Source: an uncultured Planctomycetaceae bacterium (GTDB taxonomy: Bacteria; Planctomycetota; Planctomycetia; Pirellulales; PALSA-1355). Taken from it: a stretch of 64,000 nt of DNA. The notes beneath the pieces were generated by a model, which saw only the letters and a program-made list of their open reading frames with translations, ran no database searches and had not been told where the DNA came from. This document shows positions 2,740 through 63,383 of the stretch, piece after piece (the stretch's first letter is position 1; the number at the start of each line of letters is the position of its first letter). The position numbers and the translations under genes are program-made. The stretch lies in NCBI GenBank assembly GCA_963791755.1, contig CAWBTK010000005.1:100508-164507 (forward strand), given 5' to 3'.

Positions 2740-2879
2740 GCGGTCCAGTGTAACCGTCGGCGATCGAAATCCCACCGCTTCGTCGCCTCCGTTCCTTGAA
2801 TTCCATCGAGTCCGCCGGGTTAGTATTCGACGGCTCGCGGAGCTAAAATGGGGCGATTCGCCGAGGAGAGAAAGAGAAG

Positions 2880-26600: not shown

Positions 26601-27285
26601 CGTCGAGATCATCTGGAACACCGGTGCTCCGTTCAAGCAGTGGCTCGAGGTCATTACCTTGGCCACCGACAACACGGGTCTGCCGCAGAAGGCCGGCTAT
26701 CCGGCGGGTCAGGCCGACGCGTTCTTCTTCGGCAATGCTCCGGGAAATACCGGCACCGGCGATACGGGATCCAACTCGCTGGTCAATTCGCTCGATGAGG
26801 CCGCCATCCGGGCCAACAACGCCTTGGTGAACGCGAACATTCCGATCACGAACGTCTACGACGTGGGTCGCAATGCCAGCGTGAACGTGGTCGATGAAAG
26901 TGCCGCTCGTTTGAACGGCACCAACCCGTCGACCACGCTCAAGTACCTCAACCTCACCACGGCTCCGGCGGCCCCCGAGGCCGACGGCGGCGATGTCAGC
27001 CCCTTGGTTGCGGGAGACAGTGCCTCTGGCGACAGCGGCGTGGCTTCGGCCTTGACGGCCTCGGCGCCGACGGCCGCCCCGGCTGGCCTGCCAAGGTGGA
27101 TTTTGAACCGGCTGGATAGCGTCGACCTGAATTCGGGCACCCCGGCCAAGTTGTTCCAGCACCTGCACGACGTCAACATGCCGGCCACTCGAGCCTTGCT
27201 ACAGAAGTTCGATGCCGCGGCGGATGCCCTGGGTCTGGACGACGAGCTGCTGGACTCGCTGCTGGCCGATTTGGGATTGGAATAG
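20602..27285 (+). CDS. giant (2227 aa) secreted surface/adhesin-like protein: N-terminal LEDR motif, parallel beta-helix region, 7 tandem ~135-157-aa modules, C-terminal planctomycete-type domain
   Basis: A single uninterrupted ORF. N-terminus: MNRKSLFGRLS...FRLQLEPLEDRKLLTV. Beta-helix-like segment: ILEGTYKESDIVIDRPLAFTGAG.... It also has FSISYTGGTGNDVVLTEE and seven LDLNG...YQxVLRxIKYNN modules. C-terminal region: KQLLFYNQS...GINGIMVDI...GSDRVEIIW...FFFGNAPGNTG. Confidence 0.9.
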   Translation: MNRKSLFGRLSASTIVSRPAERQSYFRLQLEPLEDRKLLTVATTYVNDNWYDTSTTDGIVRPGDGMINLNDTINPGAIFGTYGTSAFGLATKWNGGSISSNPTNYSTTAYQTIHAAIQGTNLLNGSVDILEGTYKESDIVIDRPLAFTGAGKTGATRTLIIPEDTATSALDDSQDFPAGIREGIIIYSPDVTVSNIALDGNGNATTTANAGHTLNYHQGITTLYDPSIGTYSSLRDGNLIPKRLGNPVDSVATRTRANIAVQDVAVSNVYFHGITLSALAGEQWGTNNGAGQNVDRAIVTNVGDVDGLHTQNEKHVGILIQNVDNGPFGAPADGNIRYSTVTNAGTGIKTGVFGTASYNSQAAARIRAGMIQNTVIDAVKRGYEMDFMDGSEGLRGNVATFNNLSNNAEGVYLNHSRALLTGFVINGAKVGIHVQNTPLTGSEVVILGIGGNIFTGPGTGVAGSVGLLIDNSASESDSSRVMLGSGTTISGYQTGVRAEQVVPDTVATDGSGHTASRIELDMANPSFGVNGTGIVLGNGATMFGNYSGTSSLTTTGSAIVSPGYPNWANYAYLVPGNTGKDQNPSTENSPAFLAPPTSDVINTGSVALNSATTFTPLLTNQAGTTPLFNFNAALNFPFALVPDAPNEALVPSPNGVLFNWYGNLTQDGSGTIVLGGTATNGKGLDYAFAGNNSGPIPNTTPTLYQLQGTDISNRTTLNIVAKKLATNQAETIGIGLFDVRGNANLWTFKMADLSSTAYTTLKVNLLAPSIDLTGPDSHIDLTKIAGWVFGGDQGAVNGNQNVPLGFIVDDMYADSIGSSQLNVTGSVNLGLSTLNLSASPTFVPSAGQQFVIVNNDGADAVTSSFAGFAQGSTTVIGGHTFSISYTGGTGNDVVLTEESPILDLNGASAGTGFTNDWSKILAAPVDITASSAATVNDGGGTLVSLSAQITNWHTGDILLATPPGGSGITASWNAGTNTLQLTGSSSAANYQTALRSIKYNNSAGGAGVSPVNITVTASDGTYTSAPVLATITDPAPQLDLNGATGGTGGQAAWTVGAGAVNITEVDATVTDADDTTLASMTATITVGVNINNSLTFDTTGTSITGTYNAGTSVLSLTGTDTIDHYQQVLRTIKYNNSGDPGVNEIRVSFVASDGVVTGPAQLSIITVNLPLVVDLAGTAGLDNTTSWVNNGPINIADISSAIVTDTVDGSPDNIVITITNPHAGDILTATDSGGVTSSWDATSNTMTLTGNVAAANYQTVLRTVKYNNTFGGPGVSVNVGTVNINVVGHSGAVTSRTAVSHIVVPPVIDLNGTTGVQSAGNGFNATWSNSGSISITDTDATVISPGRPNLIYMTVKITQNGTNGITEFHTGDVLTASTAGLPITQTYSNGVLTLTGEATPAQYQQVLRTIKYNNTNGGPGAGAQIFVEFLTDDDDHKSTVSTSTITISVPLSVDLNGPSGGTGFINNVSPWTTSGSPQAPLSATTARVTDTGGTDYTTATGRNLTSMTATIGTDLAKSGGVHQGDILTATSLVGGITQSYNALTGVLTLTGNSSSANYQTVLRSIRYDNSSAFGGPGADFVYIWFVGVDTLNIHSNAALGQLDINSKENIDLNGPAVGSDYATTWTNSGPVNLTTNDATVKDGDRAYLTSMTVNIGNPHAGDGLSAIVTGTNIDVQGIGSTQLVFNAKPPLNTDELVNWQTVLRSVQYFNTLGGPGVGQVFIDFDYTDSFAAVGTTRTTTVNINVVSNQPPALDLNGGVAGTGFGSTWTNTGAVNITDAAVAAVTDSDSANLASITATITGGANANNVLSATTTGTSISASYNAGSGVLTLSGSDTLAHYQQVLRTVKYNNTAGGPGAGPVTVSFVANDGALNSTPVVATISTRTASVAKQLLFYNQSGTSTRYDHNDLAINSFDDLAIATDKTAYTWENPGAATFANVSSYTKGINGIMVDIAGPHGTITAADFIFRVGNNNSPGLWTTANAPTSISVRAGAGVSGSDRVEIIWNTGAPFKQWLEVITLATDNTGLPQKAGYPAGQADAFFFGNAPGNTGTGDTGSNSLVNSLDEAAIRANNALVNANIPITNVYDVGRNASVNVVDESAARLNGTNPSTTLKYLNLTTAPAAPEADGGDVSPLVAGDSASGDSGVASALTASAPTAAPAGLPRWILNRLDSVDLNSGTPAKLFQHLHDVNMPATRALLQKFDAAADALGLDDELLDSLLADLGLE
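23305..26250 (+). repeat. seven tandem in-frame coding modules inside the giant gene
   Basis: The [LIV]DL[NA]G module starts are at 23305, 23713, 24118, 24523, 24958, 25429 and 25858 (spacings 405-471 nt). Each module ends with ...A.YQ.[AV]LR[ST][IV][KR/Q]Y[NDF]N...GGPG....[IV].[VF]...DG. Confidence 0.85.
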
Positions 27286-40505: not shown

Positions 40506-41625
40506 ATGGCGGAACCAATTTACAGTCCAGGTTTGGAAGGCGTGATCGCGGGCGAAACCGCCATTAGCACGATCGCCGGCGGCTTGCAGTATCGTGGATA
40601 TTCAATCGAGGACTTGGGCGAGCACGCGACGTTCGAGGAAGTTGCGTACTTGCTGCTGCATGGCGAGTTGCCCAAGACGGCCGAGCTGGCGGACTTCCGC
40701 GAGCGATTGAACGCGAGTGCCAAGATTCCCGATGCCTTGGTTGACTTTCTCGGCAAGATTCCCGGCGGCACGCCCATGATGGATATCCTGCGCACCGGCG
40801 CCAGCGCCCTGGCGCATTGGGATCCCGACGCGGCCGACGGTAGCCATGCCGCCAATTTGCGCAAGGCCGAGCACCTGCTGGCCCAATTGCCGATCGTGAT
40901 GGCGGCTCGCTACCGGCTGGCGAAGCGACAAAAGCCGGTGGCGTACGATCCGCGACTTTCGCTGGCCGGCAACATCCTGTGGATGCTCTTCGAAAAGCCG
41001 CCCAGCGAACGACTCACCAAGGCCATGGACGTTTCGCTGATCTTGTATGCCGAACACGAATACAACGCTTCGACGTTTGCAGCGCGCGTGGTTTGCTCGA
41101 CGTTGTCGGACATGCATTCGGCCATCACCGCGGCCATCGGCGCGCTCAAGGGCCCGCTGCACGGCGGCGCCAACGAAGCCGTGATGGAGGTGCTCAAGGA
41201 AGTGGGCACCGCCCAGCGAGCCGAGGCCTGGATTCGCGATGCCTTGGCCAACAAGCGGCGGATCATGGGTTTCGGCCATCGCGTGTACAAGACGGGCGAT
41301 CCCCGGGCCGCGTATCTGCGCACGCTTGTGCGGCGAACTGGCGGCCGAAACCGGCAACCAGGACATGGAGGCCATGGCCGATACGATCGAGACGATTGTC
41401 CGCAACGAGAAAAAGCTGCCGCCGAATCTGGATTGGCCCAGTGCCCGGCTGTATCACTACATGGGGTTGGACGTCGATCTGTATACGCCGCTGTTCGTGC
41501 TAAGCCGCGTCACGGGCTGGGCCGCGCACGTCATCGAACAGCTCGACAACAATCGCCTGATTCGCCCGCGGGCGAACTACACGGGTCCGCCTCCGCGCAA
41601 GTGGACGCCGATTGCGCAACGATAA
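40506..41625 (+). CDS. prpC: 2-methylcitrate synthase / citrate synthase family, 1-nt insertion near 41328
   Basis: ORFs 40506..41630 and 41239..41625 join as ...GFGHRVYKTGDPRAAYLRTL|CGELAAETGNQDMEAM...LYTPLFVLSRVTGWAAHVIEQ. Also LHGGANEAV. It sits adjacent to prpB. Confidence 0.85.
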
Positions 41626-41626
41626 C

Positions 41627-42580
41627 TTAGATCGCCAGCTCGCGACCCGCGCCCTGGGCCCGGGCCAATTCGAGTAACTTACCGCCCAGCGCCACGTCTT
41701 CGATCGCCAGGCCAACCGACTTGAAGATCGCGATGCTCTCGCGCGTATTGCGTCCCGTGGCGCGGCCCGTGACGACATCGGCCAAATCGACGGCTCGCGA
41801 CCAGTCGAAGACGCCTTTCTCCAACGAATCGACAAAGTCGCCCGCCTCGTTCTGGCAGGCCTTGACGCTGTCGCAGACGATGTTGTCTGCCCGGCGAATG
41901 ACGGTCGAATCGATCTCGGCTTTGTTCAGCCAATTCGAGCCGACGGCGCACACGAGCGTTCCCTCGGCCAGCCAGGCGCCGTCAAAGACCGGTTCGCGGC
42001 TCGTGGTGGCCGTCATCACAATCGGCAGATCCTCGGCGGCTTCCTGCGGCCGGTCGACCGCGCGGACCTCGATACCGAGTTGCGCCGACATGCGGCTGGC
42101 AAATTCGTCGCGCTTCTGTTCGTTGCGACTATACACATAGGCAGCCTGGATCGCGCGCACGCGAGCAATGGCCTCGAGCTGGGTTTGCGCCTGCCATCCG
42201 GCCCCGAACAGGCCCACTTCTGTGGCGTCGGCCAGCGCCATCGCCGCGGCGGCCACGCCCGAGGCGGCGCCGGTTCGCAGTTGGCCCAGCCGATCCGCTT
42301 CGATCAGAGCGATCAGCGCTCCGGTTGCGTCGTACAATCCCAGGTGGAAGAGCGCCCGCTTGCGGGTCGTGGTGTAGTTTTTCCAACCCACTAGCCCCAG
42401 GTAGCCTGCCGCGGCGCTCATCGAGTGCAGGATGATGCCAGGCGATTGTGCCCGGGTGCGGGGCACATTCTCGGCCTCACCGGCAGCCAGGCGGCGGAAG
42501 GCCTCGGCGCAAACCTCGATCGCCGCCTCCATGTCCAGCAACCGCGTCACGTCGGCTTCCGTGAGATACAAGACGGACAT
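41627..42580 (-). CDS. ornithine cyclodeaminase / mu-crystallin family protein
   Basis: ORF 41627..42580: LYLTEADVTRLLDMEAAIEVCAEAFR...LRTGAASGVAA...GLFGAGWQAQTQL. Confidence 0.85.
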   Translation of the reverse strand: MSVLYLTEADVTRLLDMEAAIEVCAEAFRRLAAGEAENVPRTRAQSPGIILHSMSAAAGYLGLVGWKNYTTTRKRALFHLGLYDATGALIALIEADRLGQLRTGAASGVAAAAMALADATEVGLFGAGWQAQTQLEAIARVRAIQAAYVYSRNEQKRDEFASRMSAQLGIEVRAVDRPQEAAEDLPIVMTATTSREPVFDGAWLAEGTLVCAVGSNWLNKAEIDSTVIRRADNIVCDSVKACQNEAGDFVDSLEKGVFDWSRAVDLADVVTGRATGRNTRESIAIFKSVGLAIEDVALGGKLLELARAQGAGRELAI

Positions 42581-46014: not shown

Positions 46015-46087
46015 GGGGCGGTAGCTCAATTGGGAGAGCGCTGCGTTCGCAATGCAGAGGTCGAGGGTTCGACTCCCTTCCGCTCCA
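46015..46087 (+). tRNA. tRNA-Ala (anticodon CGC)
   Basis: Hand-folded cloverleaf. Acceptor GGGGCGG/CCGCTCC with the G3:U70 Ala identity pair. D-arm GCTC..GAGC. Anticodon arm CTGCG-TTCGCAA-TGCAG. T-arm GAGGG-TTCGACT-CCCTT. Discriminator A. CCA is not encoded. Confidence 0.9.
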
Positions 46088-46209
46088 CTTGATGTAAGTC
46101 TTGCCGAAATCTCACGTTAGATTCCCTGCCGATGGTCGGCAGTGCGGCCTGTTTTCCGAGAGCCTGGGGATTATTTTAATCCCTTCGTTCCTTTGAAAGG
46201 GGTTGCACC

Positions 46210-50505: not shown

Positions 50506-51442
50506 ATGTCGGCGGAAGAACGACGCAAAGAGATCACCTCCTGGCCACAGCTGCTCAAGGCCACTGCCGTTGCGTGGTGGGAGGACGACGTGCAGCGGCT
50601 GGGGGCGTCTCTGGCGTTTTACATGATCTTTGCCGTCGCCCCCTTGCTCGTATTCGCTCTTTCGCTCGCGGGGCTGCTCTATGGCCGCGATGCGGCCGAA
50701 GGCCAGTTGGCGCATCAATTAGAAGCGGCCATGGGAAAGCAAGCGGCCGGCGCGCTCCAGTCGCTTCTAGCGACTTCGCATTCGAGCGGCCAGGGACCGC
50801 TGGCCACGACTCTCTCGGTGATCGCGCTCTTCGTGGGGGCGTCAGCCGCTTTTACCGAATTGCGGGCCGGTCTGAATCGAATCTGGAATGTTCGCCCGGA
50901 TCCCTCGGCGCCTTGGTGGTTGTTTCTGAAGCATCGCGCCCTGGCCTTTGCGTTGGTGCTTTTCGTTGGAGTTTTGTTTCTAGCCCTGCTGTTTGCCGGT
51001 TCAGCCGTCTTGACGGCCTGGAACTCGTGGGCGGCCGACATGCCATTTTCGGCCACGATCGCCGCGTGGCTGAACTACCTCGTGACGGCTGCCGTGGAAA
51101 CGATTCTGTTCGCCGCTATCTTTCGCTACCTTCCCGACGGGTCGGTCGACTGGAAGGACGTATTGCTCGGCGCAGTTCGTCACGTCGCTCTTGATTGGGT
51201 TGGGCAACGTGCTCATCGGCCTCTATTTCAAATACAGCGTCGTGGGCTCAACTTACGGAGCGGCGGGCTCGCTGATGGTCCTGCTGCTGTGGATTTACTA
51301 TTCCGCACAAGTGATGTATCTAGGAGCCGAATTCACGGAAAATTATGCGCGTTTTCGCGGTCAATCGATCGATCCCGACCATTACGCCGGCCCCGTGCGA
51401 GACACGGTCCAATCGGGTGCAACGGGCAATGCAAGGCATTGA
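50506..51442 (+). CDS. YihY/BrkB (virulence factor BrkB) family membrane protein, 1-nt insertion near 51178
   Basis: ORFs 50506..51672 and 51191..51442 join as ...WKDVLLGAV|VTSLLIGLGNVLIGLYFKYSVVGSTYGAAGSLMVLLLWIYYSAQVMYLGAEFT. Confidence 0.85.
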
Positions 51443-51497: not shown

Positions 51498-51935
51498 TCA
51501 CAATGCGATCAACGCCAGGTTGCTCTCCGGATCGAAACGCCTGCAAAGATGCGCCGGCGATTCGACTAGCACGACTTCGAGCGTGGGACGGACGTGGGCT
51601 TCGAGCAAGTGTCCGCCCCGCGTTGTCCCGTCGGCGCGGCCTACGACAAGATGGGCGTGGACCTTGGGCTGATCCTCTTCATCTCGCGATACATCTCCGA
51701 CCAAGGCCAGAACCTCGACCTGTTCATTCAAAGGAATTCTCTTGTAGTCCTTTTTCTGCCAGTCGAAATAACCGAGTACCACGTCCTCGAGCGCCCCAAT
51801 CGCGGTGAAATGTGCCGCTGCCAGGCGATGTTCTTTCGCGAACTTACCCAGCCCTCTGGCTACTTCGTCTCCCTTGTCAAAGATCAAGGCAAAGGTCCTC
51901 TGCCCATCGTGTTCATGAATCTGCTGGCTTTTCAT
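51498..51935 (-). CDS. PPC/DUF296 domain protein (putative DNA-binding)
   Basis: ORF 51498..51935: ...FALIFDKGDEVARGLGKFAKEHRLAAAHFTAIGAL..VVLGYFD...HAHLVVG..DGTTRGGHLLEAHVRPTLEVVL. Confidence 0.75.
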   Translation of the reverse strand: MKSQQIHEHDGQRTFALIFDKGDEVARGLGKFAKEHRLAAAHFTAIGALEDVVLGYFDWQKKDYKRIPLNEQVEVLALVGDVSRDEEDQPKVHAHLVVGRADGTTRGGHLLEAHVRPTLEVVLVESPAHLCRRFDPESNLALIAL

Positions 51936-51993
51936 CGTGGCAGTTCCCCCAAAAGGTTGTCTAAATGGGCTGGCGACTGAATCAGAAAAAAAG

Positions 51994-52371
51994 TCATGAG
52001 CTCGGGTAGGCCACCGTGCTCATGAGCGCATTTTCGGCTTGCCGAGAATCCAGGCGAGTATGCTGGACCACGATCGGCACATCCGATTCGATCAAGCTGG
52101 CATAATCCGTGTCGCGGGGAATCGCCTGGGGATCGCGAAAGTCGTTGAATCGCACGTGCCGCGTTCGCCGAGCCGGCACCGTCAATTGATAAGGACCGAC
52201 CGGCTCGCGATCCGCGAAAAACACCGTGATGGTCACATGAGCCACCTCGTCCGACGCGTTCAGCAGACACGCTGCTTCATGGCTCGTCATTTGCGGCGCG
52301 GGTCCATGACTTTCAGCGGGAATATACCCTTCGGCGATTGCCCATCGCTGTCGCCCGATCGGAGTACCCAT
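51994..52371 (-). CDS. sensory rhodopsin transducer (ASRT/TM1070) family protein
   Basis: ATG at 52371: MGTPIGRQRWAIAEGYIPAESHGPAPQMTSHEAACLLNASDEVAHVTITVFFADREPVGPYQLTVPARRTRHVRFNDF..PIVVQHTRLDSRQAENALMSTVAY. As I recall it, this is nearly collinear with Anabaena ASRT. Confidence 0.8.
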   Translation of the reverse strand: MGTPIGRQRWAIAEGYIPAESHGPAPQMTSHEAACLLNASDEVAHVTITVFFADREPVGPYQLTVPARRTRHVRFNDFRDPQAIPRDTDYASLIESDVPIVVQHTRLDSRQAENALMSTVAYPSS

Positions 52372-52384
52372 GGCGATCTCCTCT

Positions 52385-55370
52385 TCAAGTATTGGCCGCA
52401 TGGCGCCGAGCCAGTTGCAGCACGTCGGCCAAGTGCATGGCGCACCGCGAAGTCGCCTGGCTGATTTGCTGTTGGCAGCTGAAGCCGTCTGCGATGATCA
52501 GTGTGTCTGGGCTCGCCTGGCGGACGCTCGGCAACAGCGCGCGTTCTCCGCAAGCCATGGACACGTCGTAGTGGTTTCCTCGCTCGAAACCGAACGAGCC
52601 GGCCATTCCGCAGCAGCCTGGTTCGGGAGCTTCGAAATCGATTCCCATCCGGCCGAGAATCGCCTGTTCGTCTTTCATGCCGATGATCGACTTGTGATGG
52701 CAATGACCATGCACCAGAGCCTTGCGCTCCAGCGTGGCCGGTTGGTAACCCTTGAGCTGGCAATTGAGAAACTCGCTCAGCAGATAGGATTGATCGTGCA
52801 GACGCTTGGCGTCCTGCTCGGCGGGAAGCAAGTTGGTCAGCTCGTCACGGAAGACCGCCAGGCAGCTGGGCTCAAGTCCCACGACCGGAATTCCAGCCTG
52901 AATCTGAGGACGCAGATTATCGAGCACGTCTCGTAGCAGTCGTTTGGCCGTGTCCAGCATACCGAAGTCATAAAGAGGCCTGCCGCAGCAAAGCGGCCGC
53001 GGTGGAATCGAGACCTCGCATCCGGCCGCTTCCAATACCTCGACGGCCGCGATGCAAGTCTCCGGATGAAAAAAATTATTGAACGTATCGGGCCAAAGAA
53101 TCACTTTGGTCTTGCCCGTGGCCCGCTTGGGGCGGCGGCTGAACCACTGCCGAAACGTATTCCGAGCAAATGGCGGCATCTTTCGCCGCGAGTCGATCCC
53201 GCCGAGCCACTTGGCGATTCCGCTTAGGCCGGGTGTCTGACTGAAGAAGTTGGCAGCCATTGGCAAGTGCGACGCCAGCCGCGCCCACCAGTAGATCCAC
53301 CCCATGGAATACGCATAGCGCGGCCGCAGACGGCCCTGGTAGTAATGCGACAAGAATTCGGCCTTGTAAGTGGCCATATCCACGTTGACCGGGCATTCGC
53401 CTTTGCAGCCCTTGCAGGCCAGGCAAAGATCCAGCGCATCTTTTACCGGTTCGCTCTTCCAGCCCCGGCTCAGCACTTCTCCGTTCATCATCTCGAACAG
53501 CAAGCGTGCGCGCCCGCGGGTAGAATCCTTCTCCTCGCGAGTCACCTGATAACTCGGACACATGACTTGTCCGCCGCTCTTTCGACATTCCCCAACTCCC
53601 ACACATCGCAGGGCGGCGCGGGCAAAGGAATTCCTGTCCTCCGGAAACTGGAAATGCGTCGCCGGTTGAGGAGGATTATAGTCAGGACCAAGTCGCAGGT
53701 TTTCGTCCACGCGATAGGCGTCGATTTTCTTGCCCGGGTTCATTCGCCCGTGCGGATCCCAGATCGCCTTGAATTCGCGAAACGCCTGATAGAGCGGCTC
53801 GCCGAACATTTTGGCCAGGTATTGGCCCCGCGCCTGGCCGTCGCCATGCTCGCCCGACAAGGATCCCCCATAGGCAACTACAAGATCCGTCGCCTCGTCG
53901 AGAAAACGCTTGAATTTCTCGATGCCGTCGGCCGTGTACAGGTCGAAGCCCGCGCGGCAGTGCACGCATCCCTGGCCAAAATGGCCATAGAGCGAAGGAT
54001 GATAGTCATACTTGTCAAACAGCTTGCGCAGCGCGGGCAAGTAGTCGGCGATTTGCTGTACGGGTACGGCCGAGTCTTCCCAGCCGGGCCACGCATCCGG
54101 GCGCCCTGGCACCCAGGCTGTCGAGCCCAGGCCCCCTTCGCGCACTTCCCAGATCATCTTTTCCTTCTTGGGATCGTCCATCAGTTTCATGTTTGGCGCA
54201 TCATCATGTTTCTCGAAGCGCCTTCATGCAGCGCCGCGCCTGGTCGTCCGCATCGTCCTTGCTGTCGCCGCCGAATTCGACGAGCAGAAATCCCTTGCCC
54301 TCGGGCAACAGCGCCAAGTCGGCCGTTTTATCGCCTTTCAGTTTGACGAACTTGAACAGCAAGTGATCGAACCCCTCCAGCGCCGTGGGTTCAAACTCCA
54401 GAATCTCGGTCAAGTGAGTGCAGGCTTGAAAGACGTCGGGATAGCCCAGCACCAGCAGCGATCGCGCCGCCGGAGCCGGCACCAGGTGTAATGTCGCTTC
54501 CAGAATCGTGACCAACGTGCCTTCCGAGCCCACCAGCGATCGCGCGACATGAAAGCCGTTTTCGGGCAGGAGCGAATCCAGGTTATAGCCGGACACGCGA
54601 CGCGGCAATTGCGGGAAACGTCGGCGGATTTCGTCGGCGTACTTGTCTCGAAAAGCTTTCAAGCGGGAATAAATCGCCCCCCGCCGGCCGCCGCCCTGAA
54701 TGATCGCCTCGAGTTGCTCCGGCGTGGTCTGGCCGACGCGCAGTCGCAATCCGTCGTAAGTGAGAACCTCCAACTCGTGGCAGTTGTCGGCGGTTCTCAG
54801 GCCGCGGTCGTGCTTCGCGCACAATAGCGAATGTGCCCCGCAGGAATCATTTCCGAGCATGCCGCCGAGCGTGCAATGATTGTGGGTCGACGGATCGGGA
54901 CCGAACGTAAGTCCTTGTTCTCCCGCCTGGTGCCGCAGATCGTCCAAGACACAGCCAGGCTGCACGGTGCCTAATTGGTTCGCGGCGTCGATTTGGACCA
55001 CACCGCGCAGGTACTTGGAAAAATCCACCACGACGGCCACGTTGCAGCACTGTCCGGCGAGGCTCGTGCCCCCGCCGCGCGACAAGATCGGCGCTTGAAA
55101 GCGATGAGCAATCGCGACCGTCTCGACGACGTCTTCGATGCTGCGGGGCACCACGACGCCAATTGGGACCTGTCGATAATTCGAACCGTCGGTGGCATAC
55201 AATGCCCGACTACCGGCGTCGAAGCGAACTTCGCCCGAGGTTCTGCGGCGCAATTCGGCTTCCAACTCGACGATCTGGTCCTGCTGAATCGTCAATCGGC
55301 TATCGTCGACGCGCAGCCGCTCGAACCGCTTTTCTTCGTTCGTTTGTCTTAAGACAGGCAGAGTCGTCAT
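52385..55370 (-). CDS. ~1000-aa FAD-linked oxidase fused to Fe-S/CCG domains (GlcD+GlcF-like, YdiJ-like), 1-nt insertion near 54209-54211
   Basis: ORF 54204..55409 holds the FAD-binding PCMH domain (ATG at 55370). ORF 52385..54190 holds GEHGDGQARG, CVGVGECR...CPS, CLACKGCKGECP and two CCG-type Cys clusters. They join as ...CMKALRE|HDDAPNMKLMDDPKKEKMIWEVRE once one A is removed from an A3 run. Confidence 0.85.
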
Positions 55371-55387
55371 GATTTTCCCAGTTGCGG

Positions 55388-56512
55388 TCAAACTCCCTCG
55401 TTGGTCCAAGCCAAATAGTGTTGCGCGTCGCTTTCCTTGAGTTCCAGGCCAATCCCAGGTCTTGTGAGATCCGGTGACAGACAGCCGTCCACCGGCTCGC
55501 GGAAACCGTCAAACAGCATCCGCTCGATGCGCGCGTGGTCATGGAAATATTCGAGGTGCCGCAAGCTCCTCGTCGCGCAGGCAACGTGGATGTGCAAGGA
55601 CGGCGCGCAATGGCCCGATAACGACAGCGAACGAGCCGAGCATAGCGGGTCGACCTGAAGAAACCCGGTGAACCCGGCGCAGCGGCTGGCATCCGCCTGC
55701 AACACGTCAACGGCCCCGGCCTCCAGCATTCGCCGAAAGTAAGGCAAGTCATAGCCATACTCACCAGCAGCGATTTCCATGCCCGCCGGCGCCCGGTCGC
55801 GAAGCAGCCTCAGTCCCTCGAGGTCGTCGGAGGAAACCGGCTCCTCGAACCACTTCACTTGCAGGTCCGCGAACGACTCGGCGAAAGCGAGCGCCTGCTT
55901 TCGTGAGTAAGCTCCATTCGCGTCCACGAACAACTCGACGTCAGGACCAATCGCCTCGCGAGCCGCCCGCACTCGGCCCCGGTCTTGCTCCGGGTGGCTG
56001 CCGATCTTCATCTTTACGCGGCCGATCCCGGCCTCGGCCCATCCGGACAGCTGCTCTTGCAGTTGACTCCGCGTATAGGAGGTGAAGCCGCCGCTACCAT
56101 AAACGGGCACTCGCTCGCGAGCCGCGCCGAATAGGGACACCAGCGGCAGTCCGATGATTCGCGCTTTCAGATCCCATAGCGCCGTGTCAACCGCCGCAAT
56201 TCCCATCGAGGCGATGCCCGGCCGCCCCAAGTTGCGAATTGCCCGGACCATTGACTCCCAGGCCGTGGGCGTCGCCAGCGCGTCGCAATCCTCGATCGCC
56301 GGAGCCAACACCTCATCGATCAGCCTGGCGGTCGCGAGATCCGCGTACGTATACCCCAAACCAACATAGTCCGCGGCATGCGCCAGCACGCAAACCATCA
56401 CGGTATGGTCCCAGGCGATTGTTCCGTCCGCTTCAGGAAGATCGGTGGGAACGCGGTAGGCGGCAACGTCGAGTTTTGCGATCTTGACGTCGGTCAAAGC
56501 GCTGGTTGCCAT
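55388..56512 (-). CDS. enolase-superfamily enzyme, mandelate-racemase subgroup
   Basis: ORF 55388..56512. KxK (RVKMKIG), metal ligands in FVDANG / WFEEP / AAGEYG, and a general-base His in SLSGHCAP. Confidence 0.85.
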   Translation of the reverse strand: MATSALTDVKIAKLDVAAYRVPTDLPEADGTIAWDHTVMVCVLAHAADYVGLGYTYADLATARLIDEVLAPAIEDCDALATPTAWESMVRAIRNLGRPGIASMGIAAVDTALWDLKARIIGLPLVSLFGAARERVPVYGSGGFTSYTRSQLQEQLSGWAEAGIGRVKMKIGSHPEQDRGRVRAAREAIGPDVELFVDANGAYSRKQALAFAESFADLQVKWFEEPVSSDDLEGLRLLRDRAPAGMEIAAGEYGYDLPYFRRMLEAGAVDVLQADASRCAGFTGFLQVDPLCSARSLSLSGHCAPSLHIHVACATRSLRHLEYFHDHARIERMLFDGFREPVDGCLSPDLTRPGIGLELKESDAQHYLAWTNEGV

Positions 56513-56524
56513 GGCGATCTGCCC

Positions 56525-58279
56525 TCAGACGACTTCGCGAATCCTGTCTTCAAGAACAGTTTTGAGAATTGACTTGCTGTACTTCTCGCCGCGCACCAGC
56601 GACTTGGCGAACTGCCAGGCCTGATCGAGCGTGGCATGGCCGGGCATGGCCGGTTCGTTGGGATCCACCACGGCTTCAATCAACACCGGACCCGGGTGCG
56701 CCATTGCTTCACTCAATACCGCCTCGACCTTGGTCGGGTCGTCGACGGTAAATCCTGCCGCGCCGCAGGCCCGGGCGTAGGCGGCAAAGTCGATCGGTTG
56801 CAAATCGACGCCAAATTCCGGATTCCCTTCGAACACCATCTGTTCCCACTTGATTTGCCCCAGCGTATTGTTCTTGATCACGATGACCTTGACCGGCAAC
56901 TTGTGCTTGACCAGCGTGGCTACTTCGCCGAGCATCATGGTCAGCCCGCCGTCGCCCACTAGCGCCACTACCTGGCGATCGGGATACGCGATGGCCGCGG
57001 CCACGGCATAGGGCAATCCGTTGCCCATCGTGGCCAACAGGCCGGAGGCCGAGAACATCATTTCCTCCTTGATGTCGATGTAACGGGCTGCCCACGTGGT
57101 CACTGTGCCGCAGTCGGAGGCGATGATGGCGTTCGGGGCCAAGAACTTGTTCAAGGCGTGCGTTACCACTTGCGGTTTGAGCGGCATGTCCATGCGACTG
57201 GCGCGAGTCGCGAGGAGTTCCTTCCAGCCCTTCATTCCCTCTTGTGCCGATTCCAGAAAACTACGGTCTTGTTTGCGTTCGACCAGCGGCAGCAGCGCCC
57301 GCAAAACTCGCCCGCATTCTCCGACCAGGCCCACGTCGGCCGGGTGCCGCAGCCCGACCCTCGCCGGATCGATTTCGATCTGCACGCATTGGTCCTGACC
57401 CGGCTTGGGATAGAATTCCATATAGGGAAAGCTGCTGCCCAAAATCACCAGCGTGTCGCAGCCGCGCATCACGTCTTGCGAAGGCGCCGTTCCGAGCAGG
57501 CCCAGGCCGCCGGTCGTGTAGGGACTGTCGTCAGGCAAGACTGCCTTGCCGAGCAGCGCCTTGACGACCGGAGCAGCGGCTTTGTCGGCTAGTTCCAACA
57601 ACTCCGCGCGGCATTCCAGCGCACCGCGGCCCGCTAAGATCGCCACTTTCTTGCCGCCGTTGATAATGTCGGCCGCCTGCTGCAGTAGCGTGTTCGACGG
57701 CAGCATCATGGCCGGGGCGATCTGATCTCCGCTGTGGGTCGCGATGTTCGCCTTGGATCGCGGAGACTCGGCGCCATTCCAGTCCTGGACATCCTTGGGA
57801 ATGCACAGATGAGCGACACCCCGATGCGCGGTGGCTGCACGGACCGCCTCATCGACCGCGTTGTGCACGTGAGCCGGTCCTGAAATTCGTTCGTTGTAAA
57901 CCGCGACATCCATGAAGACTTTCGTCAGGTCGACATCTTGCTGGTAGTGGGTGCCGATCAAATCATGAAACGTGTGGCCTGTAATCGCCAGTACTCGTTG
58001 GCCGTCGCACTTGGCGTCATAAAGACCGTTGAGAAGATGGATGCCTCCCGGGCCGGAAGTGGCCAGGCAGACGCCCAGCCGACCGGTGTACTTGGCATAA
58101 CCGCAGGCGGCAAAGGCGGCCGCCTCCTCATGTCGGACCTGGACGAATCGGATCGTGTCTTGCCGGGTTCTCAGGGCTTCGAAGATGCCGTTTATTCCAT
58201 CGCCGGGAAAACCAAAAATAGTGTCCACTCCCCAATGAATGAGCCGGTCAACCAGCAGTTCCGCAGCGACTTTGCCCAT
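56525..58279 (-). CDS. thiamine-diphosphate-dependent enzyme (pyruvate oxidase / PoxB-like family)
   Basis: ATG at 58279: MGKVAAELLVDRLIHWGVDTIFGFPGDGINGIFEAL...VRHEEAAAFAACGYAK...ATSGPGGIHLLNGLYDA. ThDP motif: GDGGLTMMLGE...IVIKNN. Confidence 0.85.
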   Translation of the reverse strand: MGKVAAELLVDRLIHWGVDTIFGFPGDGINGIFEALRTRQDTIRFVQVRHEEAAAFAACGYAKYTGRLGVCLATSGPGGIHLLNGLYDAKCDGQRVLAITGHTFHDLIGTHYQQDVDLTKVFMDVAVYNERISGPAHVHNAVDEAVRAATAHRGVAHLCIPKDVQDWNGAESPRSKANIATHSGDQIAPAMMLPSNTLLQQAADIINGGKKVAILAGRGALECRAELLELADKAAAPVVKALLGKAVLPDDSPYTTGGLGLLGTAPSQDVMRGCDTLVILGSSFPYMEFYPKPGQDQCVQIEIDPARVGLRHPADVGLVGECGRVLRALLPLVERKQDRSFLESAQEGMKGWKELLATRASRMDMPLKPQVVTHALNKFLAPNAIIASDCGTVTTWAARYIDIKEEMMFSASGLLATMGNGLPYAVAAAIAYPDRQVVALVGDGGLTMMLGEVATLVKHKLPVKVIVIKNNTLGQIKWEQMVFEGNPEFGVDLQPIDFAAYARACGAAGFTVDDPTKVEAVLSEAMAHPGPVLIEAVVDPNEPAMPGHATLDQAWQFAKSLVRGEKYSKSILKTVLEDRIREVV

Positions 58280-58351
58280 GATCCGGGTCCTCGACAATAA
58301 AAGACAGGAACCGCGGGCGGTCTCGCGGCTCAAGGATTGAATGTTTTTCCA

Positions 58352-58650
58352 CTACTCGCCCGTGTGGCTCGACGCGCGAGCCACGGCCTGTTCCGCCTCG
58401 TGCCAGAATCGCTGATCGCGAAGACATGCGGTGTCCACACAAGGGTGGAAGGCCTCCGTCAAAATACCGTTGCAGATCGTGAACCAGACGTCACTATCCG
58501 CGCCGATGGCAGTCCCGACGCCCGTCTTTGGGGCCGGCGCCAAAAGGCCGACGCGCCCGGCGCACCGGGCGCTTGACGTGCGGTCCAGTGGGGTGCTCGG
58601 TTCCCGGCCGCTTCAGGTTTACGTTGGAACTGCCCGTGTGGAGCGTTCAT
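58352..58650 (-). pseudogene. glycoside hydrolase family 15 (glucoamylase-like) N-terminal remnant: 1-nt deletion near 58541, truncated after ~100 codons
   Basis: ORFs 58459..58650 and 58352..58543 join as MNAPHGQFQRKPEAAGNRAPHWTARQAPGAPGASAFW|APAPKTGVGTAIGADSDVWFTICNGILTEAFHPCVDTACLRD... This matches the conserved GH15 N-terminus (APG.PG...W....K.GVGTA....S.VWFT...G.L.E.yyP..D....RD). The stop is at 58352, directly before the ThDP-enzyme gene. Confidence 0.6.
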
Positions 58651-59808
58651 GATGTGAACCTTGTCTGCCGCTCACGGCTTGCCGCCTGACCCGAAGGGCG
58701 GCGTTTTTTTGCCAACGGCTCTTCGGTCGAAAGGGATTGTCCGATCGCCGCGAGCCCCAGCAATCCAGCGACACCTGTCACACCGCCGACGATCGAACGG
58801 GTCCAGAACTTCCCGCTCTTGCTGGTCAGGGCGCCCATGCGCCGGCGGCAACGGCCGTAAGCATCAGACCAACGCGGTGCTGGCTGGCCCAAAACTGCAA
58901 GCTGTTCGGATGCGCCCGGTCGTCGAAATCTCCCCGCGCACCGTAGTCGACCTCCTGGTCGACCGGCTCGTAGAGATTATTCTCCCGCCCGGCGTCTCGA
59001 CGACCGTCATACTGCTGCGAGTCATAACCGTGCTGAGCCAAATAGCGGTCACCGAATCCGGGCGCCACCTTGTTGCCCTCGACGACCACCACCGTGGAAG
59101 CCCCCACGAACCACTCGCGCCGGTAATGATGTGCGGCGTGATAAATTGCCGCGGCCGCCACTTCCGGTTGGAAAATCGGCGGAACCGGTTGCGGCTTGCG
59201 CGGAAGCCGGCTCTTCACCCAATCGAACTGGGGAGTGTTCAACGCCGGCATCTGCACGATGGTGATGCGAACATTGCTTTGGTCGTGCAGCAGCTCGCAC
59301 CGCACGGACTCCGTAAAACCCTGAATCGCGTGCTTCGCTCCGCAGTATGCCGACTGCAAGGGAATGCCTCGATAGGCAATGCCGAACCCACCTGGATAAT
59401 CGTGCCGCGGTCGCGCGGCAGCATCCGTTTGAGCGCGGCCAGCGTGCCATGCACGAAACCCAGGTAAGTCACTTCCGTAACTCGCTTGTAATCGGCGGCG
59501 GTCATCTCCCGGGCCGGCGAAAAGACCGAGCACATGGCGTCGTTGATCCACGCGTCGATCGGGCCCAGCTGGCTTTCAACAGCGTCGGCTGCCGCTTCTA
59601 CTTCGTCGGCACTGGACACGTCGGTCGGCACAACCAGAGCCTTTCCTCCAAGCGATTCGACGTCGCGTCGAGCACCCTCCAGTCCGGCACGACCGCGGGC
59701 GAGCAGCGCGACGCTCGCCCCCCGGCGGGCAAACTCGCGCGCGGTCGCTCGACCCACGCCGGCCGAGGCGCCTGTAATCACTACGACTTGCCGGCGATTG
59801 TTTGCCAT
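58647..59808 (-). CDS. SDR-family oxidoreductase with hydrophobic C-terminal extension; 1-nt deletions near 59377 and near 58836-58840
   Basis: ORF 59239..59808 (MANNRRQVVVITGASAGVGRATAREFARRG) joins ORF 58826..59551 (...GSAL|AYRGIPLQSAYCGAKHAIQGF: YxxxK). The tail is in ORF 58647..58892 (GALTSKSGKFWTRSIVGGVTGVAGLLGLAAI). The final TGA overlaps the ATG of the GH15 remnant (ATGA at 58647-58650). Confidence 0.75.
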
Positions 59809-60714: not shown

Positions 60715-61209
60715 CTAGGCCGTCGTCTCCGCCAAAAGCGGTAACAGATCTTTCTCGATGCGCTCGGCGCCGGCATTGGGCGCATACCGTGCTTTCACAG
60801 CCCCGTGGCGATCGATCAGGAACTTGGTGAAATTCCATTTGATCGCCTTGCTGAACAGCATGCCGCGGCGAGCGGACTTCAAGAAATCGTAGAGCGGATG
60901 CGCCGCGGCTCCATTGACCTTGATCTTGGCAAACAGCGGAAACGTCACGTCGTACTTGAGCCGGCAAAACTGCTTGATTTCGGCCTCATCGCCCGGCTCT
61001 TGATGACCAAACTGATCGCAGGGAAATCCCAAAACCGCAAAGCCCTCGGCTCGATGCCTTCGAAACAGCGCCTCGAGTTCGGCGTATTGTGGCGTGAACC
61101 CGCACTGGCTCGCCACGTTGACGATCAACAACGCCTGGCCCCGGTAGGCATCGAGCGACTGCTTGTGGCCGTCGATGGTCGTGACCTGAAAGTCGTACAG
61201 ACTTGTCAT
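60715..61209 (-). CDS. glutathione peroxidase (Cys-type)
   Basis: ATG at 61209: MTSLYDFQVTTIDGHKQSLDAYRGQALLIVNVASQCGFTPQY...LGFPCDQFGHQEPG...IKWNFTKFLIDRHG. Confidence 0.9.
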   Translation of the reverse strand: MTSLYDFQVTTIDGHKQSLDAYRGQALLIVNVASQCGFTPQYAELEALFRRHRAEGFAVLGFPCDQFGHQEPGDEAEIKQFCRLKYDVTFPLFAKIKVNGAAAHPLYDFLKSARRGMLFSKAIKWNFTKFLIDRHGAVKARYAPNAGAERIEKDLLPLLAETTA

Positions 61210-61483
61210 CTCTTCTCTCTCGGGATAGATCTGGACATTATAACGGCCAGTCGCCCGGGCTTGCGTGGTCGCCGAAGCCCGCTCGGTCGGGCTGCCAGTA
61301 AGGCTCAAACCTGGCCTGCGTGGTTCCAATTCCACCATATTCCTGACGATTAAGCGGTATGAGAGCGATGGCACGCAATATGCAATACCCTTTGGCATGA
61401 ATCGATTAGGCATGAATCGATCGACTTCGGCAACGCCGAAAGTCGCCGCTGGTCAAAAATTCTCTCAACCGAGGAGCATTGAA

Positions 61484-61612
61484 ATGGAAATGGTCATGCA
61501 GGGTCCGGTGGTAATCGCGGCGGCAGGCTATTCATTGGTCTATTTGTTGGCTGGCGGCGGCTTTTTTGGCGCGCTAGTCATCTTCGTCGTTGCTAAAATG
61601 CTGGGCAAGTAG
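61484..61612 (+). CDS. small hydrophobic protein (42 aa), hypothetical
   Basis: ATG at 61484, 7 nt after GAGGAG: MEMVMQGPVVIAAAGYSLVYLLAGGGFFGALVIFVVAKMLGK. Confidence 0.35.
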   Translation: MEMVMQGPVVIAAAGYSLVYLLAGGGFFGALVIFVVAKMLGK

Positions 61613-61730
61613 GCTCCGCACCGGCTCGACTGAGCCGCCGAGTGCGGTAAGCAAGACAGCATTACCGCACTCGGCGCCGGGGCGAAATTATACGGCGGCG
61701 CCCAACGGCCAATACAGGTCTAATCGACAG

Positions 61731-63383
61731 ATGGGCTTGACCGAGTACCGCCGCAAACGCGACTTCAATGTCACTTCCGAGCCGCGCGGCAGCAAAGCCA
61801 CCTCCAAGGCGCGGCTCGGTTTCGTCATCCAGAAACACGCCGCATCTCATTTGCACTACGACTTCCGCTTGGAACTCGGCGGCGTGCTTTTGAGTTGGGC
61901 CGTGCCCAAGGGCCCATCGCTCGATCCGGCCGTCAAAAGATTGGCGATGCGTGTCGAGGATCACCCTGTTGAATATGGGAGCTTCGAAGGCATCATACCC
62001 AAAGGGGAATATGGAGGAGGCACCGTCCTGCTTTGGGACCGCGGAACCTGGGAGCCGATTGGGGACGCCAAGAAAGGACTTCAGGAGGGTAGCCTGAAGT
62101 TCACTCTCCACGGCGAGAAATTGCACGGCGGCTGGATGCTTGTCCGGCGCGGGGGCAAACATGGCGACCCGGACGAGCGACACTGGTTCTTGTTCAAAGA
62201 GCGTGACGAATTCGCCGACGCCTCGTCGGACGTGACCTCCACGATGCCCCTGAGCGTCGCCACGGGCCGTGACTTAAGCGAGATCGCCCGCAGCGCCGAT
62301 CGCGTCTGGGGCCCGAACGGTGAGGTTGCCGGCGGGCGAAAGATCAAAGCCGAAAGCGTAAAGTCAACGGCCGGTCCCAAGCGGCCTGGCACCAAGCCAC
62401 CGTCAGCGATGACGACCACGGCACGCGCTAAAACGGCGAGCCGAACACGTGCCTCCCTTAAAGGAGCGAGCAAGAAAGCCAAGGACAGCAAGAGCGAAGT
62501 TGCCGGAGTGGAACTTTCGCATCCGGGAAAGATCCTCTATCCGGGCGATGACATTACTAAACTTGATCTGGCTCAGTACTACCAGCAAGCCGCGGATTGG
62601 ATGCTGCCGCTGGTGGCCGATCGGTTGATTTCGCTGGTGCGGTGCCCGGCCGGCAGCGGCCAAAAATGCTTCTTCCAAAAACACCCTGGCGAGGGCGGTT
62701 TCGGTGGTCTTCGTCGCTACGCGGTGCGCGAGAAGGCCGGTACCGAAGAGTATCTGGTCCTTGGCGGCGTCTCGGACCTCATTTCGCTGGTTCAAATGAG
62801 CGTACTCGAGATTCATGTGTGGGGATCACGGGCCGATCGGATCGAGAAGCCCGATCGGCTTATTTTTGATCTCGACCCTGGCGAAGACGTCGAATGGCCG
62901 CGCGTCGTTGTGGCGGCCAAGGAAGTACGACTCCTGCTCGAAGAACTGGGACTCGAGTCGTTTCTGAAAACGACCGGCGGCAAGGGATTGCACATCGTCG
63001 TGCCCATTCAGCGGCGCACGAGCTGGGAAGACGCTAAAGCATTCTGCCGAGCCGTTGCCGACTTGATGGTCGCCGCGGCGCCCGACCGATACATCGCCAC
63101 GATGAGCAAAGCTGCCCGCAAGGGAAAAATATTCGTCGATTACCTGCGGAACGATCGCGGGGCCACGTCCGTCGCGCCCTATTCGACGCGGGCTCGCAAG
63201 GGCGCCACCGTTAGCGTTCCGATTGCGTGGGATGAATTGAACGCTCGTCTGCGTTCAGACCATTTCACGGTCGACAACGTGCCCGCGCGGCTGGCCAAAC
63301 TGAAAAGAGACCCCTGGGCTGACCTGCCGAACGTGCGGCAGTCGATTACCGCCTCGATGGTTCGGCGGCTGAAGCTATCGTAG
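61731..63383 (+). CDS. ligD: LigD-type NHEJ protein with 3'-phosphoesterase and polymerase/primase domains but no ligase domain
   Basis: ATG at 61731. PE domain: MGLTEYRRKRDFNVTSEP...FVIQKHAASHLHYDFRLELGGVLLSWAVPKGPS...GGGTVLLWDRGTW. Then a basic low-complexity linker. Pol domain: LSHPGKILYP...RLIFDLDPGEDV...FLKTTGGKGLHIVVP...IFVDYLRNDRGATSVAPYSTR. Confidence 0.85.
   Translation: MGLTEYRRKRDFNVTSEPRGSKATSKARLGFVIQKHAASHLHYDFRLELGGVLLSWAVPKGPSLDPAVKRLAMRVEDHPVEYGSFEGIIPKGEYGGGTVLLWDRGTWEPIGDAKKGLQEGSLKFTLHGEKLHGGWMLVRRGGKHGDPDERHWFLFKERDEFADASSDVTSTMPLSVATGRDLSEIARSADRVWGPNGEVAGGRKIKAESVKSTAGPKRPGTKPPSAMTTTARAKTASRTRASLKGASKKAKDSKSEVAGVELSHPGKILYPGDDITKLDLAQYYQQAADWMLPLVADRLISLVRCPAGSGQKCFFQKHPGEGGFGGLRRYAVREKAGTEEYLVLGGVSDLISLVQMSVLEIHVWGSRADRIEKPDRLIFDLDPGEDVEWPRVVVAAKEVRLLLEELGLESFLKTTGGKGLHIVVPIQRRTSWEDAKAFCRAVADLMVAAAPDRYIATMSKAARKGKIFVDYLRNDRGATSVAPYSTRARKGATVSVPIAWDELNARLRSDHFTVDNVPARLAKLKRDPWADLPNVRQSITASMVRRLKLS

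Follow-up and report, generated by a model that had tools for sequence, protein, structure and literature searches.

A compact gene cassette lies at positions 51498–58279, on the minus strand, of a 64,000-nucleotide stretch of DNA from an uncultured Planctomycetaceae bacterium (assembly GCA_963791755.1, contig CAWBTK010000005.1, positions 100,508 to 164,507), which is referred to here as the window. The cassette encodes a thiamine diphosphate (ThDP) enzyme, an enolase-superfamily enzyme of the mandelate racemase (MR) subgroup, an FAD/Fe-S dehydrogenase and two small proteins of the ASRT and PCC families. Comparison with related loci shows clearly that the ThDP–enolase core, together with one flavoprotein dehydrogenase, is a selected unit. 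We tentatively propose that a polar 2-hydroxy or 2-oxo acid, probably derived from a sugar, is oxidised and decarboxylated by the cassette in a quinone-linked manner, a reading in which every catalytic step is taken from the chemistry of the protein family concerned.

Conservation of the gene set

Relatives of the enolase-superfamily enzyme were collected from one genome per species, giving more than 595, and the loci of the best 80 were analysed. The proteins of the window and neighbour families defined de novo were mapped onto these loci using tblastn and open reading frame (ORF) calling weighted by the G+C content of third codon positions. Distances were counted in the 49 enolase-centred loci with at least 6 kb of sequence on each side, which we call full-flank loci.

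The best 80 of the more than 595 relatives come from 12 phyla. The enolase has one identical database entry and thousands of homologues at 62–79% identity. For the window, identity to locus L001 of 75–82% points to a relative of Pirellulales. A ThDP gene is found within 6 kb of the enolase gene in 44 of the 49 full-flank loci. Where a ThDP gene is present (64 loci), it stands directly upstream of the enolase gene on the same strand in 47, and the gap of about 12–15 nt between the two is held across phyla. A flavoprotein dehydrogenase occurs in 45 of the full-flank loci, as the FAD/Fe-S enzyme in 26 and as a GMC gene set in 23 (FAD/Fe-S only in 22, GMC only in 19, both in 4, neither in 4). The family of the short-chain dehydrogenase/reductase (SDR) encoded upstream of the cassette in the window has a member within 6 kb of the enolase in 27 of them. 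The association of these genes is not due to chance, since the set turns up again in 12 phyla when the 80 enolase-centred loci are compared.

The first-pass annotation, which was made from the sequence of the window alone, had named lack of conservation as one outcome that would count against its reading; the gene set is strongly conserved. Its view of these genes as a functional unit, combining an MR-subgroup enolase, a 2-hydroxyacid-type flavoprotein dehydrogenase and a ThDP-dependent 2-oxoacid enzyme, is supported by this result.

The domains of the window ORFs were assigned using Pfam, and their subfamilies were examined using NCBIfam equivalog cut-offs and sequence matches to the PDB. The cassette consists of six ORFs as given, which fall into five gene families, all on the minus strand; their domain content agrees with the families and positions proposed earlier. 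The close packing that had been described is also borne out, with successive intergenic gaps of 12, 17, 13 and 58 nt. The starts of the ThDP (58279), FAD/Fe-S (55370) and ASRT (52371) genes are backed by homology and by ribosome-binding sites, that of ASRT being a GAGGAG just before the ATG at 52371, and the gene calls of the source record match for the ThDP protein (584 aa) and PCC (145 aa).

The ThDP and enolase-superfamily enzymes

The first gene of the cassette (56525–58279, minus strand) encodes a PoxB/PQO-like ThDP enzyme of 584 aa containing the TPP_enzyme_N, M and C domains. Its best PDB matches are 9ev4 at 362 bits and Escherichia coli PoxB (3ey9) at 358 bits; acetolactate synthases score about 218, and benzoylformate decarboxylase (MdlC), the ThDP enzyme of the mandelate pathway, only about 125–128. 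This agrees with the earlier suggestion that the dehydrogenase and ThDP lineages differ from those of MdlB and MdlC. The protein falls below the NCBIfam cut-offs of PRK08273 (640 against 724 bits), PRK09124 (467 against 792) and PRK08611 (582 against 742), and Gln occupies the position of Phe465, the electron-transfer Phe of PoxB. By its three domains and its closest relatives the enzyme belongs with PoxB, PQO and POX, but not by equivalog score or by the residue at position 465.

The second gene (55388–56512, minus strand) encodes an MR-subgroup enzyme of 374 aa from the 3CYJ family. MR_MLE_N (37.7 bits) and MR_MLE_C (198.7 bits) both score above their cut-offs, consistent with the two-domain TIM-barrel architecture of the enolase superfamily. 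Residues K167, K169, D197, E223, E251, D274, H301 and E321 align to MR K164, K166, D195, E221, E247, D270, H297 and E317; residue numbers in the MR sequence used for this alignment agree with the catalytic positions as published. The KxK, D/E/E and His pattern noted in the first-pass annotation is accordingly present, as K167/K169, D197/E223/E251 and H301. All eight catalytic residues are 98–100% conserved in 55 family members. Across the same 55 sequences 99 positions are invariant, including E27, D29 and T31 in the lid loop. These lid residues are polar or acidic, and therefore favour a polar substrate and make mandelate itself an unlikely one.

The nearest solved structure is 3CYJ, an uncharacterised structural-genomics entry from Rubrobacter xylanophilus, which matches residues 6–368 at 452 bits and about 63% identity. 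Bordetella enzymes come next in the PDB at 148 bits, and mandelate racemase chains reach 94 bits. The domains and catalytic residues place the protein in the MR subgroup, and both the 3CYJ score and the 62–79% identity to homologues from many phyla place it in the 3CYJ-like family; its distance from MR and its polar lid set it outside mandelate racemase proper (MdlA). No close characterised relative was found in NCBIfam or the PDB. The curated acid-sugar dehydratase models all score below their cut-offs: talarate/galactarate (TalrD/GalrD) 185 against 500 bits, arabinonate (AraD_Arch) 125 against 650, and rhamnonate, galactonate and gluconate 105 against 393, 93 against 311 and 87 against 750, respectively. 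A grouping with a characterised acid-sugar dehydratase, the other outcome that had been named as adverse, is thus not seen, even for TalrD/GalrD, the best of these models.

Two alternative flavoprotein dehydrogenases

The third gene (52385–55370, minus strand) encodes a YdiJ-architecture FAD/Fe-S/CCG dehydrogenase of the D-2-hydroxyacid type, which is frameshifted near 54220–54225 and is 994 aa long once repaired. The family and domains of the roughly 1000-aa FAD/Fe-S oxidase that had been predicted here were found, but in the given sequence it is two ORFs and not one, as described below. The repaired protein covers the YdiJ profile from position 21 to approximately 1014 and has the expected architecture of FAD_binding_4, FAD-oxidase_C, Fe-S and CCG domains. 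It falls short of the equivalog level, scoring 490 bits to the YdiJ model NF049975, for which the cut-off is 1350, and we therefore consider it to represent a distinct paralogous subfamily. The proteins of YdiJ architecture known by function are D-2-hydroxyacid dehydrogenases linked to quinone.

The FAD/Fe-S enzyme can be replaced: roughly half of the loci have the GMC set in its stead, which consists of three genes encoding a membrane protein, a “gluconate 2-dehydrogenase subunit 3”-like protein and a GMC flavoprotein. In loci L002 and L141 the three genes are placed between the ThDP and enolase genes. Since each type usually occurs alone (22 and 19 loci) and the two occur together in just 4, this looks like the replacement of one step. 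The type present varies in part with lineage: FAD/Fe-S is found in 7/7 Planctomycetota, only GMC in 22/25 Actinomycetota, and both types in Acidobacteriota and Chloroflexota. The two types belong, respectively, to the YdiJ/Fe-S D-lactate dehydrogenase group and the gluconate 2-dehydrogenase-like group, families in which oxidation of the C2 hydroxyl of D-configured hydroxy acids is known.

The small proteins ASRT and PCC

The ASRT-family protein (51994–52371, minus strand; 125 aa from the ATG at 52371, within an ORF called as 51994–52401) matches PF07100 at 190.6 bits and Anabaena ASRT (2ii7) at 196 bits. It contains the sequence SHEAACLLN, which fits the SHEshChhN pocket signature as defined in PMC2739507, and is therefore a member of the family. 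No rhodopsin domain turned up in a non-exhaustive Pfam scan, which took in the cassette genes, the genes beside them and the larger window ORFs; most ASRT homologues likewise have no rhodopsin partner (PMC2739507). ASRT has been proposed to be a sugar binder (PMC2739507), and it has been investigated as a DNA-looping protein (PMC8660804). It is plausible that ASRT is non-enzymatic, as the first-pass annotation had supposed, and it is probably a small-molecule sensor or regulator, an assignment that we treat as putative.

The PCC/DUF296 protein (51498–51935, minus strand; 145 aa) matches PF03479 at 103.7 bits, against a cut-off of 25. In the PDB it has relatives only among structural-genomics entries; these were deposited as hypothetical or putative DNA-binding proteins and carry no assigned function.

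Among the enolase-centred loci, ASRT and PCC are confined to those with FAD/Fe-S, 19/26 of which have one or the other, against 0/19 of the GMC-only loci; PCC immediately follows FAD/Fe-S in 14 of 31 cases. The window order of FAD/Fe-S, ASRT and PCC is found again in locus L142. A survey of PCC-centred metagenome loci, 48 of which had enough upstream sequence, found the upstream neighbour to be ThDP in 9 and FAD/Fe-S in 9; elsewhere PCC occurred in GMC clusters lacking FAD/Fe-S, next to genes for ASRT or SDR, or in surroundings unrelated to the cassette. These loci rule out an exclusive tie of ASRT and PCC to the FAD/Fe-S gene, and their variety leads us to regard the two as facultative, mobile members of the neighbourhood, shuffled between positions. 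They do not form the fixed operon tail that the earlier description of them as trailing genes implied.

The neighbourhood of the cassette in other genomes

Several families recur near the cassette: GH15 glucoamylase/trehalase-like proteins, glucodextranase and debranching-type enzymes, a distinctive SDR, DUF72, cytochrome oxidase subunits and an AI-2E-family transporter. The cassette is widely distributed and often plasmid-borne. Annotated examples come from cultured bacteria. On pDEIPE01 of Deinococcus peraridilitoris the cassette is accompanied by thioredoxins, a peroxidase, a PRC-barrel protein and GH15, and on a Burkholderia multivorans replicon by SDR, GH15, cytochrome c and bd oxidases, BON, ferritin-like and Mn-catalase genes. 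Two of the replicons are typed as conjugative: pACIX903 of Granulicella tundricola, where ferritin-like and YetF genes are found with the cassette, and pWB1 of Rhodococcus sp. WB1, where SDR, GH15, ctaD and an NAD(P)/FAD oxidoreductase are. The idea of a stress regulon driven by SigB/SigF-type or EcfG-type promoters was dropped, since no consensus matches lie consistently upstream of the cassette in the loci.

Eight Solirubrobacterales loci (L009, L020, L028, L034, L039, L044, L054 and L065) share a near-identical 16-kb layout, in the order AI-2E transporter, MFS, GH15, ThDP, enolase, gluconate 2-dehydrogenase subunit 3-like protein, GMC, SDR and DUF72. A GTTT-N14-18-GGGTA motif is present on the minus strand near the GH15 start in the first six of these, and not in L054 or L065.

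Proposed function

To the quinone-linked route that we prefer we would give slightly less than an even chance. The near-invariant core of the cassette is the PoxB-type ThDP gene, followed some 12 nt on by the MR-subgroup enolase gene, with a flavoprotein dehydrogenase joining them. The enolase-superfamily enzyme would take the alpha-proton from a polar, probably sugar-derived 2-hydroxy acid, most likely dehydrating it to a 2-oxo-3-deoxy acid; the flavoprotein dehydrogenase would convert a D-2-hydroxy acid of the same pathway to the 2-oxo acid; and the PoxB-like enzyme would decarboxylate the 2-oxo acid, probably oxidatively. The electrons of both redox steps would pass to the quinone pool, not to NAD. 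The 2-oxo-3-deoxy products of acid-sugar dehydratases are natural ThDP substrates, and we know of no pathway in which one of the MR-subgroup acid-sugar dehydratases has a ThDP enzyme as the next step. A role in oxidising acids derived from storage carbohydrate under starvation or stress is plausible, because the neighbourhood contains GH15 and debranching-type hydrolases of alpha-glucan or trehalose, SDR, terminal oxidases and stress proteins.

Several points weigh against this proposal. The enolase, ThDP and FAD/Fe-S subfamilies, though parts of well-known superfamilies, are without a characterised member, their curated equivalog scores all being well under the cut-offs, and the sequence does not reveal the substrate. 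With Gln in place of Phe465 of PoxB, FAD binding and quinone coupling by the ThDP enzyme are putative. No aldolase, kinase or dedicated transporter is consistently linked to the cassette among the loci, which leaves undefined what enters and what leaves the pathway. The counts are phylogenetically non-independent, with many related Solirubrobacterales metagenome-assembled genomes among the 80 loci; and a search of the full-text literature, in which the 2009 ASRT paper (PMC2739507) was the sole relevant one, found no functional, expression or fitness study of the cluster. Finally, the shuffled order and partial presence of neighbours are also compatible with a co-regulated stress island whose enzymes have no common pathway.

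This last possibility can be put more specifically. The cassette would belong to a mobile stress or stationary-phase island containing an ordinary pyruvate:quinone oxidoreductase, an ordinary D-lactate, glycolate or D-2-hydroxyglutarate dehydrogenase, and an enolase-superfamily enzyme with an unrelated substrate. Besides the shuffled gene order and the gain and loss of members, it would account for the classic stress neighbours (catalase, ferritin-like protein, thioredoxin, BON and PRC-barrel proteins; LigD and glutathione peroxidase in the window) and for the PCC relatives found away from the cassette; E. coli PoxB and Bacillus subtilis YdaP, moreover, are stationary-phase or general-stress proteins. 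However, it is difficult to see how a ThDP–enolase gap of about 12–15 nt could be kept across phyla if the two were not functionally coupled, the switch between FAD/Fe-S and GMC (22 and 19 loci, with both in 4) resembles replacement of a single step, and the ThDP enzyme scores below the pyruvate dehydrogenase and oxidase cut-offs (467 against 792 and 582 against 742). We therefore think it unlikely that the enzymes share no pathway.

The first-pass annotation had instead drawn a parallel with the mandelate pathway. This holds in so far as the enzyme classes match MdlA, MdlB and MdlC. Read as an order of reactions, it would have the enolase act as a 2-hydroxyacid racemase or epimerase (L to D), followed by a D-specific FAD/Fe-S or GMC dehydrogenase and then by ThDP-dependent decarboxylation. 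The two-base racemase catalysts, K169 and the H301–D274 dyad, are conserved. GlcD/YdiJ-type enzymes are D-specific, and the match to the YdiJ architecture supports a dehydrogenase of this kind; the ThDP–enolase context with one of two dehydrogenase types, seen in 45/49 full-flank loci, would also be expected. Every MR-subgroup dehydratase has the same catalytic residues, however, and to our knowledge the characterised enzymes of the subgroup are nearly all acid-sugar dehydratases. MR itself is distant (94 bits). The tight pair, ThDP–enolase, would represent steps 3 and 1 of a mandelate-type order, rather than enolase and dehydrogenase, and accords no less well with a dehydratase whose 2-oxo acid goes on to the ThDP enzyme. 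A polar lid, and a context related to sugars through GH15 and ASRT, both speak against a hydrophobic substrate without a 3-OH. Because of the tight pairing, the dehydratase activity of characterised relatives, the lid and the context, we find the racemase-first order unsupported and consider it improbable.

A more ambitious version of our preferred quinone-linked route is a long shot. Here the cassette with its GH15, SDR and GMC neighbours would encode a new respiratory route for sugar acids that requires no NAD, CoA or ATP. Hydrolysis of storage alpha-glucan or trehalose would give glucose, and oxidation of the glucose an aldonic acid; the flavoprotein dehydrogenase, the enolase-superfamily dehydratase or both would make a 2-oxo or 2-oxo-3-deoxy derivative of it; and the PoxB-like flavo-ThDP enzyme would decarboxylate this oxidatively, each redox step reducing quinone directly. 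If true, such a route would serve cells of many soil phyla to maintain an energised membrane during starvation, desiccation or dormancy, and would be without natural precedent as a pathway that hands the product of an acid-sugar dehydratase to a ThDP enzyme.

The enolase family is among the most conserved members of its superfamily to be without a function (62–79% identity over 12 phyla), and a structure, 3CYJ, is already solved. Once its substrate is identified, thousands of genes would gain a function in the Acidobacteriota, Actinomycetota, Chloroflexota, Planctomycetota and Burkholderiales of soil, and the ASRT and DUF296/PCC small proteins would gain a role. The substrate might also reveal how non-growing soil bacteria obtain respiratory electrons from storage carbohydrate.

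Interrupted genes in the window

The FAD/Fe-S gene is read as two ORFs in different frames. One (54204–55409, 401 codons) contains FAD_binding_4 and the first third of FAD-oxidase_C, and the other (52385–54190, 601 codons) the remainder of FAD-oxidase_C together with the 4Fe-4S dicluster (Fer4) and CCG domains, so that the break separates profile positions 2–88 of FAD-oxidase_C from positions 99–247. In L001 the Pirellulales orthologue is one undivided ORF, and alignment to it changes the window frame between 54225 and 54220 with no residue lost; removal of one G from AAGG gives back the 994-aa ORF. The gene is in one unbroken frame in 31/31 related loci that hold both halves. In the window the halves are 76–77% identical to the L001 orthologue and free of further lesions.

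Including this one, four frameshifts were found among the approximately 40 ORFs examined in the window. The SDR gene upstream of the cassette (58826–59808, minus strand) is frameshifted near 59373, just before the catalytic YxxxK region, leaving adh_short positions 1–137 and 141–186 in different frames; this was confirmed by tblastn with the SDRs of cluster 2 of the neighbour families. The downstream BrkB/YihY gene (50506–51442, plus strand) is frameshifted near 51170, with profile positions 2–198 and 206–257 in separate frames. The long BrkB ORF runs on out of frame after this point, into the PCC gene on the opposite strand. A citrate synthase gene (40506–41630, plus strand), which is 12 kb from the cassette and outside its neighbourhood, has a single-base frameshift near 41330; its Pfam match covers positions 1–276 of 357, and the conserved C-terminus (NLDWPSARLYHYMG...GWAAHVIEQ) is in another frame.

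Because the SDR, BrkB and citrate synthase genes also carry single-base frameshifts, that in the FAD/Fe-S gene is most likely an assembly (indel) error and not a sign of operon decay. The copy in the window is an ordinary one, adding one more to those known, with a frameshift that probably comes from sequencing.

A different kind of lesion is seen between the SDR and ThDP genes, at 58352–58540 (minus strand), where tblastn finds the remnant of a GH15-type glucodextranase gene, of which only the N-terminal ~45–65 aa are left. Matches to the 700–860-aa proteins of cluster 20 are limited to their N-terminal 40–65 residues. A full-length glucodextranase gene (700–860 aa) adjoins the cassette in L001, L006, L059 and L063. 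The remnant is a genuine lesion, because a base-calling error cannot produce such a truncation.

Independently of the question of pathway, the cassette in this genome could be a decaying relic, with a true frameshift and an operon that has lost some or all of its function. The frameshift cuts a catalytic domain, the adjacent SDR and BrkB genes are frameshifted as well, the glucodextranase neighbour has been cut down to 45–65 aa by something other than a base-calling error, and the G+C content is lower beyond the tRNA-Ala gene at 46 kb. We nevertheless think this doubtful. The citrate synthase gene has the same type of single-base lesion outside the neighbourhood, which indicates assembly-wide indel errors and weakens decay specific to an island as their cause; the four other cassette genes are intact and 60–80% identical to their orthologues; and the two halves of the FAD/Fe-S gene retain their similarity to the L001 orthologue with no more lesions.

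Other features of the window

A consensus scan identifies a putative GC-rich, terminator-like hairpin with a T-tract at 58308–58331 (minus strand). It lies upstream of the ThDP gene, 29 nt from the start codon, and may terminate the preceding unit, which contains the SDR gene and the glucodextranase remnant; little space would then be left for a dedicated promoter. Alternatively, it may be a leader structure. An Rfam scan of the 46–64 kb region for leader RNAs or riboswitches matched only the tRNA-Ala gene (anticodon CGC; 46015–46088, plus strand), the sole RNA gene found, downstream of which the cassette lies. The G+C content is about 0.64 before this gene and 0.59–0.61 downstream of it, and the neighbours of the cassette at 46–64 kb include CAP, an AI-2E transporter, an Na/Ca exchanger, BrkB, SDR, glutathione peroxidase and a LigD-like protein. 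This stretch may be an integrated stress-type island. The LigD-like protein (61590–63383, plus strand) has phosphoesterase and primase-polymerase domains, with no ligase domain in the ORF, and its gene adjoins that of glutathione peroxidase (60715–61413, minus strand); the two are consistent with a stress/repair neighbourhood.

Elsewhere in the window are genes for a GMC-family oxidoreductase (1105–2775, minus strand), an NAD-dependent D-isomer-specific 2-hydroxyacid dehydrogenase (5181–6176, minus strand) and a GlgX/isoamylase-like protein (14700–16778, minus strand), which share themes with the cassette neighbourhood but belong to different subfamilies. An uninterrupted ORF of 2227 codons (20602–27285, plus strand) has no convincing Pfam domain, and its weak match to calsyntenin is probably spurious.

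Comparison with known systems

The ASRT-linked neighbourhood was described previously by De Souza, Iyer and Aravind (Biol Direct 2009; PMC2739507), in genomes that include R. xylanophilus, as an operon containing a pyruvate decarboxylase/oxidase, a sugar-acid dehydratase/racemase, a glycolate-oxidase-like FAD oxidoreductase and ASRT. The same four protein families are present here in one predicted operon, ASRT has the SHE..C..N signature, and it was R. xylanophilus that yielded 3CYJ, with its approximately 63% identity to the cassette enolase. The 2009 description was a gene-neighbourhood note in which function was left unassigned, and the copy in the window adds the PCC/DUF296 gene. The GMC alternative, the status of the ThDP–enolase pair as core, and the stress, alpha-glucan and plasmid context are added by the present survey.

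Among characterised pathways, that of Pseudomonas putida MdlA/MdlB/MdlC offers the same combination of an MR-subgroup enzyme, a 2-hydroxyacid dehydrogenase and a ThDP-dependent 2-oxoacid decarboxylase, and the MR catalytic residues are kept. MdlB, however, is an FMN enzyme specific for (S)-mandelate, whereas that of the cassette is FAD/Fe-S/CCG of the D-specific type; MdlC scores about 125–128 bits to the ThDP enzyme compared with 358 for PoxB, MR scores 94, and the polar lid makes an aromatic substrate unlikely.

The enzymes can also be compared one by one. The acid-sugar dehydratases (TalrD/GalrD, the Bordetella enzymes 3ozm and 3h12, and D-arabinonate dehydratase) are the best-scoring characterised relatives of the enolase and share its subgroup and catalytic machinery, but their identity to it is just ~30%. 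E. coli YdiJ (D-2-hydroxyglutarate dehydrogenase) and the Fe-S D-lactate dehydrogenases have the same fusion of FAD_binding_4, FAD-oxidase_C, 4Fe-4S dicluster and CCG domains. PoxB and the PQO-like proteins 9ev3–9ev6 are the best structural relatives of the ThDP enzyme (358–362 bits in a full-length match) and have its arrangement of three domains, and E. coli PoxB also shares a C-terminal tail of ~21 residues past the aligned region; in contrast to the cassette, poxB and pqo have no obligatory enolase-superfamily gene as partner, and the cassette enzyme misses their curated models and has Gln for Phe465. The cassette is an uncharacterised variant of 2-hydroxy/2-oxo-acid catabolism, which would not surprise a specialist and is a good target for the discovery of function.

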